NCBI RefSeq assembly: GCF_030384885.1
Contig: NZ_CP128613.1
Reading direction: 5' to 3' (one strand)
Length of the DNA stretch: 64,000 bases
Source: Escherichia coli
GTDB lineage: Bacteria; Pseudomonadota; Gammaproteobacteria; Enterobacterales; Enterobacteriaceae
Under the pieces are notes generated by a model, which had not been told where the DNA came from, searched no databases, and saw only the letters and a program-made list of their open reading frames with translations. Shown piece after piece: positions 42,751-44,591 of this stretch (positions within the stretch are counted from its first letter, which is position 1; every line of letters begins with the position of its first letter). Position numbers and translations under genes: made by a program.

Positions 42751-43899
42751 ATGCAGGATGCAGCGCCCCGTCTGACTTTCACTTTACGAGACGAAGAGAG
42801 GTTGATGATGAAAATTGGCGTATTCGTACCTATCGGCAACAACGGCTGGCTCATTTCGACCCACGCGCCGCAGTACATGCCGACTTTTGAACTGAATAAA
42901 GCCATCGTGCAAAAAGCGGAGCACTACCATTTCGATTTCGCACTGTCGATGATCAAACTGCGTGGCTTTGGTGGCAAAACTGAGTTCTGGGATCACAACC
43001 TGGAGTCGTTCACTTTGATGGCCGGGCTGGCAGCCGTGACCTCGCGTATTCAGATTTACGCCACTGCCGCCACCTTAACGTTACCTCCGGCAATCGTCGC
43101 CCGTATGGCCGCAACCATTGACTCCATCTCTGGCGGGCGTTTTGGCGTAAACCTGGTGACTGGCTGGCAAAAACCCGAGTATGAGCAGATGGGCATCTGG
43201 CCTGGCGATGACTATTTTTCCCGTCGTTATGACTATCTCACCGAATATGTCCAGGTGCTGCGCGACCTGTGGGGAACGGGGAAAAGCGATTTTAAAGGCG
43301 ATTTTTTCACCATGAACGATTGCCGCGTCAGTCCACAACCGAGCGTACCCATGAAAGTGATCTGTGCCGGGCAAAGCGACGCTGGCATGGCGTTCTCCGC
43401 CCAGTATGCCGATTTCAACTTCTGCTTCGGGAAAGGCGTAAACACGCCCACGGCTTTCGCCCCGACCGCTGCGCGGATGAAACAGGCCGCAGCGCAAACC
43501 GGGCGCGACGTTGGCTCTTATGTGTTGTTTATGGTGATTGCCGACGAAACCGACGATGCCGCTCGTGCAAAATGGGAACACTACAAAGCGGGCGCGGATG
43601 AAGAGGCGTTAAGCTGGCTAACCGAACAAAGTCAGAAAGATACCCGCTCCGGTACTGACACCAACGTCCGTCAGATGGCCGATCCCACTTCGGCGGTAAA
43701 CATCAATATGGGGACGTTAGTCGGTTCTTACGCCAGTGTCGCGCGCATGTTAGATGAAGTCGCAAGCGTACCTGGTGCCGAAGGCGTGCTGTTGACCTTC
43801 GATGATTTTCTGTCGGGAATCGAAACCTTCGGTGAGCGCATTCAGCCGCTAATGCAGTGCCGCGCCCATCTCCCCGCGCTTACTCAGGAGGTCGCGTGA
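42751..43899 (+). CDS. rutA: Pyrimidine monooxygenase RutA (382 aa)
   Basis: ORF 42718-43899; start at [10 protein letters not shown] gives 382 aa (an internal [10 protein letters not shown] start is also possible); luciferase-like monooxygenase composition. Confidence 0.9.
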
Positions 43900-44591
43900 T
43901 GAAAACCTTAACCGCTCGACCGGAAGCCATTACCTTCGATCCGCAGCAAAGTGCGCTGATCGTGGTGGATATGCAAAACGCTTATGCCACACCAGGCGGC
44001 TACTTAGATCTCGCCGGTTTTGATGTCTCAACCACTCGCCCGGTCATTGCCAACATTCAAACCGCCGTGACCGCAGCGCGAGCGGCAGGGATGTTGATCA
44101 TCTGGTTTCAAAATGGCTGGGATGAACAGTATGTCGAGGCTGGCGGTCCCGGCTCACCGAATTTTCATAAATCGAACGCCCTGAAAACCATGCGTAAGCA
44201 GCCGCAGCTACAGGGGAAATTGCTGGCGAAAGGCTCCTGGGATTATCAACTGGTAGATGAACTGGTGCCGCAGCCTGGCGATATTGTGCTGCCGAAGCCG
44301 CGCTACAGCGGTTTCTTCAATACGCCGCTGGACAGCATTTTGCGCAGCCGCGGAATACGCCATCTGGTTTTCACCGGCATCGCTACCAACGTCTGCGTCG
44401 AATCGACGCTGCGCGACGGCTTTTTTCTGGAGTATTTCGGCGTGGTGCTGGAAGACGCAACCCACCAGGCGGGGCCGGAGTTTGCGCAGAAAGCCGCGTT
44501 GTTCAATATCGAAACCTTTTTTGGCTGGGTGAGCGACGTCGAAACGTTCTGCGACGCGCTTTCTCCCACGTCCTTTGCCCGTATCGCTTAA
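43899..44591 (+). CDS. rutB: Ureidoacrylate amidohydrolase RutB (230 aa)
   Basis: Start [13 protein letters not shown]; its ATG overlaps the rutA stop in TGATG; isochorismatase-like. Confidence 0.9.

Follow-up and report, generated by a model that had tools for sequence, protein, structure and literature searches.

Coupling of translation at superposed stop and start codons was reportedly demonstrated genetically by Oppenheim and Yanofsky in 1980 for the UGAUG junctions of trpE/trpD and trpB/trpA. Of the six gene pairs considered here, rutA/rutB and cbpA/cbpM carry the same -1 TGATG motif as these trp pairs, coupling being a genetic result in trp whereas it is inferred here. [quoted passage not shown] 2019 (PMC6728339). 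Like our six pairs, they are co-directional chromosomal neighbours with superposed stop and start codons and mostly a Shine-Dalgarno (SD) sequence in the upstream gene, and torA/torD has exactly their ATGA form. Their coupling is known from reporters and mRNA controls whereas the pairs here are known from sequence, and they are all -4, whereas the pairs here include three with -1 and two with -8, a class reported to reinitiate less efficiently (PMC10666635). The fifth pair tested, bioB/bioF, likewise a stop/start overlap in a biosynthetic operon, was uncoupled, bioF starting de novo although its SD is weak, and the contribution of the SD to coupling ranged from essential to none (PMC6728339). 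An overlap alone is therefore no proof of coupling, which is where the preliminary description of this DNA went too far by reading the overlaps as an indication of it.

[quoted passage not shown] The six overlaps fall into three classes, namely -1 (TAATG or TGATG), -4 (ATGA) and -8 (ATGNNTAA). No combination of a start and a stop codon yields -2 or -5, which leaves -8 as the shortest overlap in its phase. The three classes are the commonest distances between genes both in E. coli and across 1,695 genomes (PMC6728339, PMC10666635, PMC12548453), and coupling breaks down at spacers of about 20 nt or more (PMC10666635, PMC12548453).

Sequence, annotation and start-site data

The stretch of E. coli DNA analysed here (64,000 nucleotides, referred to as the window) is 99.98% identical to positions 1513700-1577699 of the genome of E. 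coli 2013C-4282 (NZ_CP027579.1), the differences being 13 substitutions and an additional C in the C-run ending at position 22608. A 4-kb probe around the rutA/rutB junction had a match in 5421 of 5426 complete E. coli genomes, that of 2013C-4282 being 100% identical. Gene coordinates are those of the PGAP annotation of NZ_CP027579.1 transferred to the window. Because of the extra C, PGAP features upstream of 22608 were moved one base lower, after which all PGAP coding sequences translated cleanly in window coordinates. The PGAP gene names match those of the preliminary description (rutA-G, cbpAM, torCAD, mdoGH, which equals opgGH, and pgaABCD). Scans of the window with Rfam and for tandem repeats returned nothing relevant to the junctions. 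The most unusual feature noticed in the window lies outside the overlaps: a 1.4-kb AT-rich islet with two orphan open reading frames between yccJ and agp, present in only 5 of the 5426 E. coli genomes, the two frames having no match in Pfam, NCBIfam, PADLOC or PHROGs.

Start-site data were taken from INRI-seq of K-12, in which synthetic transcripts covering -30 to +153 of each gene are translated in a pure in vitro system in the presence of retapamulin, and which detected 3059 of 4225 E. coli starts overall (72%) (PMC9825163). With its resolution of +/-3 nt, neither GTG 43896 and ATG 43899 at rutB nor ATG 55132 and ATG 55135 at cbpM are separable. The junction sequences of K-12 and the window are identical for torD (including the torA/torD overlap), opgH and pgaC, and nearly so for the others.

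Six short overlaps between consecutive genes

All six stop/start overlaps claimed beforehand were present at the cited positions, with every cited string found in the sequence (Table 1), and in the transferred annotation all six pairs are adjacent genes on the same strand. Each junction fits one of the canonical overlap forms: TRATG (-1) in rutAB and cbpAM (TGATG) and in torCA (TAATG), NTGA (-4) in torAD (ATGA), and NTGNNTRR (-8) in opgGH (ATGAATAA) and pgaBC (ATGATTAA). torCAD, cbpAM, rutA-G, pgaABCD and opgGH have all been described as operons, and a stop/start overlap leaves no space for a terminator and a promoter between the two genes. TorD is the chaperone of TorA and TorC is its electron donor; we know of no interaction between RutA and RutB. 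CbpM binds the J-domain of CbpA with 2:2 stoichiometry (PMC4063869), and opgG-opgH is the only one of the six pairs marked as a complex by Huber et al. 2023 (PMC10666635).

The same pairs with the same distances are listed for K-12 in Table S2 of Huber et al. 2023 (torC-torA -1, torA-torD -4, cbpA-cbpM -1, rutA-rutB -1, pgaB-pgaC -8 and opgG-opgH -8; PMC10666635), and there is no difference of substance. The window strain departs from the K-12 catalogue only in the cbpA stop codon (TGA, in K-12 TAA), which brings an extra in-frame ATG, and in the codon preceding rutB (GTG, in K-12 ATG). The qualification given beforehand, that this is ordinary operon architecture, is thus borne out: the overlaps are correct but ordinary, they were already known, and such overlaps are a very common feature of bacterial operons.

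Taken together, the gene pairs of the window show no enrichment in tight junctions: 10 of the 40 same-strand neighbour pairs (25%) lie at distances between -8 and +6 nt, a share that matches the 707 of 2987 pairs (24%) reported genome-wide for E. coli (PMC10666635). The bare motifs are common as well, [AGT]TGA occurring at 41% and a stop codon followed by TG at 7.8% of the stops of long open reading frames in the loci collected for the rutB comparison (see below). A seventh same-strand overlap, between ymdB and clsC, was missed in the preliminary description and measures 59 nt with the PGAP start.

Table 1. Genes and junctions of the six overlapping pairs (window coordinates; distances in nt).
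Feature	Positions	Strand	Remarks
opgH (mdoH) CDS, 847 aa	6596..9139	-	PGAP; N-terminal peptide; INRI-seq peak
ATGAATAA opgH start/opgG stop, -8	9132..9139	-	opgH start 9139-9137, opgG stop 9134-9132; no recognisable SD
opgG (mdoG) CDS	9132..10667	-	PGAP coordinates minus 1; stop TAA 9134-9132
pgaB CDS	27109..29127	+	PGAP; stop TAA 29125-29127; translates cleanly
ATGATTAA pgaC start/pgaB stop, -8	29120..29127	+	pgaC start 29120-29122; weak SD
pgaC CDS, 441 aa	29120..30445	+	PGAP; conserved N-terminus; INRI-seq peak
rutA CDS, 363 aa	42808..43899	+	PGAP; stop TGA 43897-43899; translates cleanly
rutB Shine-Dalgarno AGGAGG	43886..43891	+	in last rutA codons, 7 nt before ATG; sequence reading
TGATG rutA stop/rutB start, -1	43897..43901	+	base 43899 common; rutB ATG 43899-43901
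rutB CDS, 230 aa	43899..44591	+	PGAP; TIGR03614 profile; crystal structure
cbpA CDS	54215..55135	+	PGAP; stop TGA 55133-55135; translates cleanly
ATGATG cbpA/cbpM junction	55132..55137	+	conserved start ATG 55135-55137 (-1); ATG 55132-55134 minority allele
cbpM CDS, 101 aa	55135..55440	+	PGAP; NF007617; INRI-seq peak
torD CDS, 199 aa	55592..56191	-	PGAP; NF003442; structure alignment
ATGA torD start/torA stop, -4	56188..56191	-	ATG 56191-56189, TGA 56190-56188; SD AGGTGA 56201-56196
torA CDS, 848 aa, N-terminal twin-arginine signal peptide	56188..58734	-	PGAP; INRI-seq peak
TAATG torC stop/torA start, -1	58732..58736	-	TAA 58736-58734, ATG 58734-58732, base 58734 common; SD AAGGAAG 58748-58742
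torC CDS	58734..59906	-	PGAP; translates cleanly

Start codons of the downstream genes

The overlaps had also been put forward in support of the chosen start codons where the open reading frames offered longer upstream starts. Such starts do exist for rutB (GTG 43857, plus GTG 43896 one codon upstream of the ATG), cbpM (TTG 55120), torD (GTG 56224) and opgH (GTG 9169). There are none for torA, whose annotated ATG is preceded by an in-frame stop 6 codons upstream with no start codon in between, or for pgaC; for these two genes the argument is empty because the open reading frame has no start codon ahead of the annotated ATG.

The short starts chosen are right, as judged from several lines of evidence. 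When the longest open reading frames were searched with NCBIfam profiles, these began at the annotated Met or only a few residues away from it and left every upstream extension uncovered: position 1 of TIGR03614 aligns to residue 3 of annotated RutB, positions 1-101 of NF007617 coincide exactly with CbpM as annotated from 55135, position 4 of NF003442 aligns to Met1 of annotated TorD, and position 7 of the OpgH family profile aligns to residue 3. Among known structures, the chains of the E. coli RutB crystal structure begin at the annotated Met, and in an alignment of annotated TorD with S. massilia TorD (1N1C), residue 10 of the former pairs with residue 11 of the latter. N-terminal proteomics, which had been suggested as a check, agrees for OpgH, whose N-terminal peptide (residues 1-27), found in K-12, begins at the annotated Met (PMC13245402 Table S1). 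INRI-seq gave peaks at the annotated K-12 starts of torA (212-297 CPM), cbpM (96-169 CPM in 5 replicates), opgH (24-33 CPM) and pgaC (14-26 CPM), and zero signal in all five replicates for both rutB and torD (PMC9825163). The INRI-seq table also reproduces in vivo Ribo-RET values, which are zero for each of the six genes; expression of these genes is poor in rich medium (PMC9825163). None of them is mentioned in the TetRP supplement.

It might be argued that some of the overlaps are annotation artefacts and that the true starts lie at upstream GTG or TTG codons, or at an internal ATG pair of pgaC (29207-29212). The in-frame upstream candidates of rutB, cbpM, torD and opgH, of which GTG 56224 of torD has an SD-like match of -9.2 kcal/mol, speak for this, as do an alternative in-frame INRI-seq site about 84 nt into pgaC (42.6 CPM, PMC9825163) and the TIGR03937 (PgaC/IcaA) profile, which begins at residue 30 of PgaC. 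Against it, the extended starts at GTG 43857, TTG 55120, GTG 56224 and GTG 9169 were rejected, as they are supported neither by the profiles or the peptide of OpgH nor by the alignment with the TorD structure or the RutB starts across species, which in 44 of the 54 compared follow the stop of rutA. The internal site was likewise rejected as the main start of pgaC: residues 1-29 are conserved as protein (consensus M-x-D-R-x-I-A...), whereas Met30/31 are not and are usually Leu in homologues. Among 13 PgaC homologues with 53-65% identity, 11 begin at the aligned Met and two have called N-terminal extensions. For these reasons the annotated pgaC start stands. The artefact reading is already largely refuted, and we consider it extremely improbable.

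One detail of the preliminary description did not hold as worded. The ATGA that it gave for cbpA/cbpM (55132-55135) is present in the window, but it is not the conserved start of cbpM, which in PGAP, in K-12 and in the NCBIfam profile is the second ATG, at 55135. The K-12 junction reads CATAATG, where the cbpA stop is TAA and the upstream codon ATA is no start (oligo table, PMC9825163). Exact-word searches found the K-12 allele in 4981 and the window allele in 430 (8%) of 5426 E. coli genomes. Since K-12 and most genomes read ATAATG, the conserved overlap is the -1 form with ATG 55135; ATG 55132, where 92% of E. coli genomes have ATA, was discarded as a conserved start. Judged by these alleles, the ATGA at cbpM arose incidentally when TAA changed to TGA in a minority lineage, which would leave both ATG codons (55132 and 55135) as starts that may be used for cbpM in this strain.

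Conservation of the rutA/rutB and pgaB/pgaC junctions

RutB loci were collected from species-representative genomes with a degenerate DNA pattern for the DMQNAYA motif. Of the 120 loci obtained, 54 had a usable rutA directly upstream, and about 55 were uninformative for the junction because rutA was not directly upstream. The spacing in the 54 species was -1 in 37, -4 in 7 and a gap of 0 to +17 in 10, the gapped species being mostly Betaproteobacteria. The overlap is thus kept in 44 of the 54 species with this gene order, against a null of 7.8% (binomial P = 1.5e-28, an upper bound on the significance as shared ancestry is ignored). In the -1 loci, between 68 and 161 nt separate the rutA stop from the codon of a conserved Asp of RutB; since the -1 overlap stays while this distance changes, the rutB start follows the rutA stop. 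The strong SD of rutB is kept in almost all -1 loci. The rutA/rutB overlap is strongly conserved, beyond chance. The in-frame GTG at 43896-43898 directly before the rutB ATG allows an alternative reading of the junction as GTGA (-4), and such tandem starts recur, as GTGATG in the window, as ATGATG in K-12 and as NTGATG in 14 of the 37 species. Tandem in-frame starts, at rutB and, in 8% of genomes, at cbpM, could give rise to two proteoforms that differ by one N-terminal residue.

At pgaB/pgaC, spacings of -4, -8, +3 and -11 were found in four distant homologous loci. The junction is tight but variable in length. The torC/torA, torA/torD and cbpA/cbpM junctions were compared within E. coli, and opgG/opgH beyond it from the literature, where the typical distance of the MdoG-MdoH COG pair across genomes is -8 (Huber et al. 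2023, PMC10666635 Tables S2 and S5). The existence of the six overlaps and the start codons of the downstream genes are established by this analysis, and the rutA/rutB overlap and the tight pgaB/pgaC junction have been kept over long evolutionary distances.

Prospects of translational coupling

[quoted passage not shown] An SD motif lies inside the upstream gene for rutB, cbpM, torD and torA, and is all but lacking for opgH and pgaC. The dependence on the upstream ribosome would probably differ by pair, with a good SD in the upstream gene available to rutB, cbpM and torD and almost none to opgH and pgaC. The weak SDs of the latter two are compatible with the coupled class, as the reported contribution of the SD ranges from essential to none. 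Coupling is not required in vitro for torA, cbpM, pgaC and opgH because their starts fire on isolated transcripts without the upstream gene, and these four at least are able to initiate on their own. A literature search for coupling experiments on the six pairs found none among the papers searched.

A neutral origin, with de novo initiation at each downstream gene and the overlap as a by-product of gene packing and codon superposition, could draw on the four starts that fire on isolated transcripts, on the strong SDs of rutB, cbpM and torD, on bioBF as a -4 pair without coupling, on the drift of the pgaB/pgaC spacing from -11 to +3 among homologues and on the gap of 0 to +17 between rutA and rutB in 10 of 54 species. 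This account, however, has difficulty with the rutB start, which in 44 of the 54 species sits on the stop of rutA despite a changing length of the N-terminus, as would hardly be expected if there were no selection on the junction. The neutral account is further at odds with the genome-wide frequency of the distances -4, -1 and -8, an order of magnitude above that of neighbouring distances (PMC10666635), with the coupling of four of five tested E. coli pairs (PMC6728339), with an opgH that lacks any SD, and with rutB and torD, which are silent on their own in INRI-seq despite strong SDs. All in all, we hold it to be unlikely. Coupling of the six pairs is plausible, and by analogy with other gene pairs they are good candidates for it.

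Coupling itself could come about through unfolding of the RNA instead of reinitiation by the same ribosome, if the upstream ribosome melted a structure that hides the ribosome binding site (RBS) and a new 30S subunit then bound. This is one of the two non-exclusive models in a review (PMC12548453), and the silence of rutB and torD as isolated transcripts in spite of their good SDs is what would be expected if folding hid them; in the predicted minimum-energy fold of the torD region, the SD and the start codon are indeed paired. The computed unpaired probability of the RBS (-14 to +5) was, however, not lower for the two INRI-seq negatives (0.49-0.50 for torD and rutB, compared to a median of 0.47 for the genes detected by INRI-seq; P=0.26), which were thus not separated from the detected genes, and RBS accessibility was rejected as the cause of their silence. 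The steep dependence of coupling on distance, with loss by about 20 nt, also argues for reinitiation (PMC10666635, PMC12548453). Unfolding as the sole route therefore appears quite improbable to us. The two genes that combine a strong SD with the lack of a signal in vitro, rutB and torD, come first as candidates for a strict dependence on the upstream ribosome. That they do depend strictly on ribosomes finishing rutA or torA is suggested by their silence in an assay that detected 72% of E. coli starts, among them that of opgH, which has no SD, but we regard this stronger statement as rather doubtful.

Discussion

Very probably, the window contains six real and correctly annotated short overlaps between consecutive genes of five well-known operons (rutA-G, cbpAM, torCAD, opgGH and pgaABCD), which by analogy are candidates for translational coupling. 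As the catalogue of Huber et al. 2023 lists the same pairs and distances, the finding is correct, ordinary and already catalogued. The overlaps help to fix the start codons of rutB, cbpM, torD and opgH, which is of bookkeeping value only. They alter nothing that is known, and they suggest a linked production of TorD with TorA, of CbpM with CbpA, and of the proteins for glucan and PGA synthesis.

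The rut operon: start codon and variation

Translation starts were compared with the PGAP annotation transferred from the 99.98% identical record NZ_CP027579.1 and with INRI-seq, an in vitro mapping of initiation sites on isolated K-12 transcripts (PMC9825163). The rutA gene is opened by a tandem ATGATG (42805/42808), of which PGAP takes the second ATG, giving a protein of 363 aa. INRI-seq yielded 102 CPM (four replicates) at an alternative in-frame ATG at +54 of rutA, which corresponds to this tandem, and no peak at the older K-12 start (equivalent to 42751) of the 382-aa form.

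Judged by nucleotide identity, the rut allele of this lineage is unusually divergent, since only one of the 5421 E. coli genomes matching the 4-kb segment of the operon (42000-46000) reached at least 99% identity and the second-best match was 97.1% identical. Nearly all other matching genomes were 95-99% identical to the segment. Among 120 loci with the RutB motif pattern from other species, some 55 carry a RutB homologue (58-76% identity) with no rutA directly upstream. These belong mostly to Caulobacter, Sphingomonas/Sphingobium and Bradyrhizobium, groups in which the rut genes are thus arranged in a different order.

Features of the window discussed in this part.
Feature	Window position	Strand	Length	Source
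ymdB/clsC junction	13645-13716	minus		
tRNA-Ser, then 'RtT sRNA' feature	22349-22717			PGAP
Tandem array, phoH-efeB interval	32174-32430			
naRNA4 match	32252-32329			Rfam
rutA start region	42751-42810			
AT-rich islet, yccJ-agp	49725-51167		~1.44 kb	
Orphan ORF 1 of islet	50260-50619	minus	119 aa	
Orphan ORF 2 of islet	50632-50958	minus	108 aa	
torR/torT overlap	60701-60728		28 nt	

Accessory and repeated segments

The 3' ends of yccJ and agp enclose an AT-rich islet, which has a GC content of 36-40% compared to about 50% in the flanks, and this segment was found in only five of 5426 complete E. coli genomes. Its two adjacent orphan ORFs, spaced by 12 nt, had no match in Pfam, NCBIfam, PADLOC or PHROGs. 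The islet may represent a small acquired two-gene module.

In the phoH-efeB interval, a 100-nt unit is repeated in tandem 2.6 times (92% matches), and an Rfam match to the REP-derived naRNA4 overlaps this array. The tRNA-Ser/RtT region holds a direct repeat of about 120 nt (22419-22538 and 22599-22717, 96.7% identical) and, within the 'RtT sRNA' feature, an extra C relative to the closest record in a C-run ending at 22608; Rfam at the gathering threshold made no RtT call in this region. The convergent genes torR and torT overlap at their 3' ends.

Candidate initiation sites in pgaC and clsC

About 84 nt into pgaC, INRI-seq detected an alternative in-frame initiation site with 42.6 CPM, compared to 14-26 CPM at the annotated start. 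The site reads CTGATGATG (29204-29212) and is preceded by GGTGA; Met30/31 of PgaC are not conserved among the homologues compared. The signal could reflect a minor internal start or arise from the in vitro system.

For clsC, PGAP takes the ATG at 13707 (493 aa), resulting in an overlap of 59 nt with ymdB, whereas the start assigned in K-12 is the TTG at 13647 (473 aa), 1 nt past the ymdB stop. The K-12-type start gave no INRI-seq peak; it is preceded by AAGGAG, with a Shine-Dalgarno duplex energy of -10.6 kcal/mol compared to -3.9 kcal/mol for the PGAP start. If the K-12-type start is the true one, ymdB/clsC would be another tight junction.
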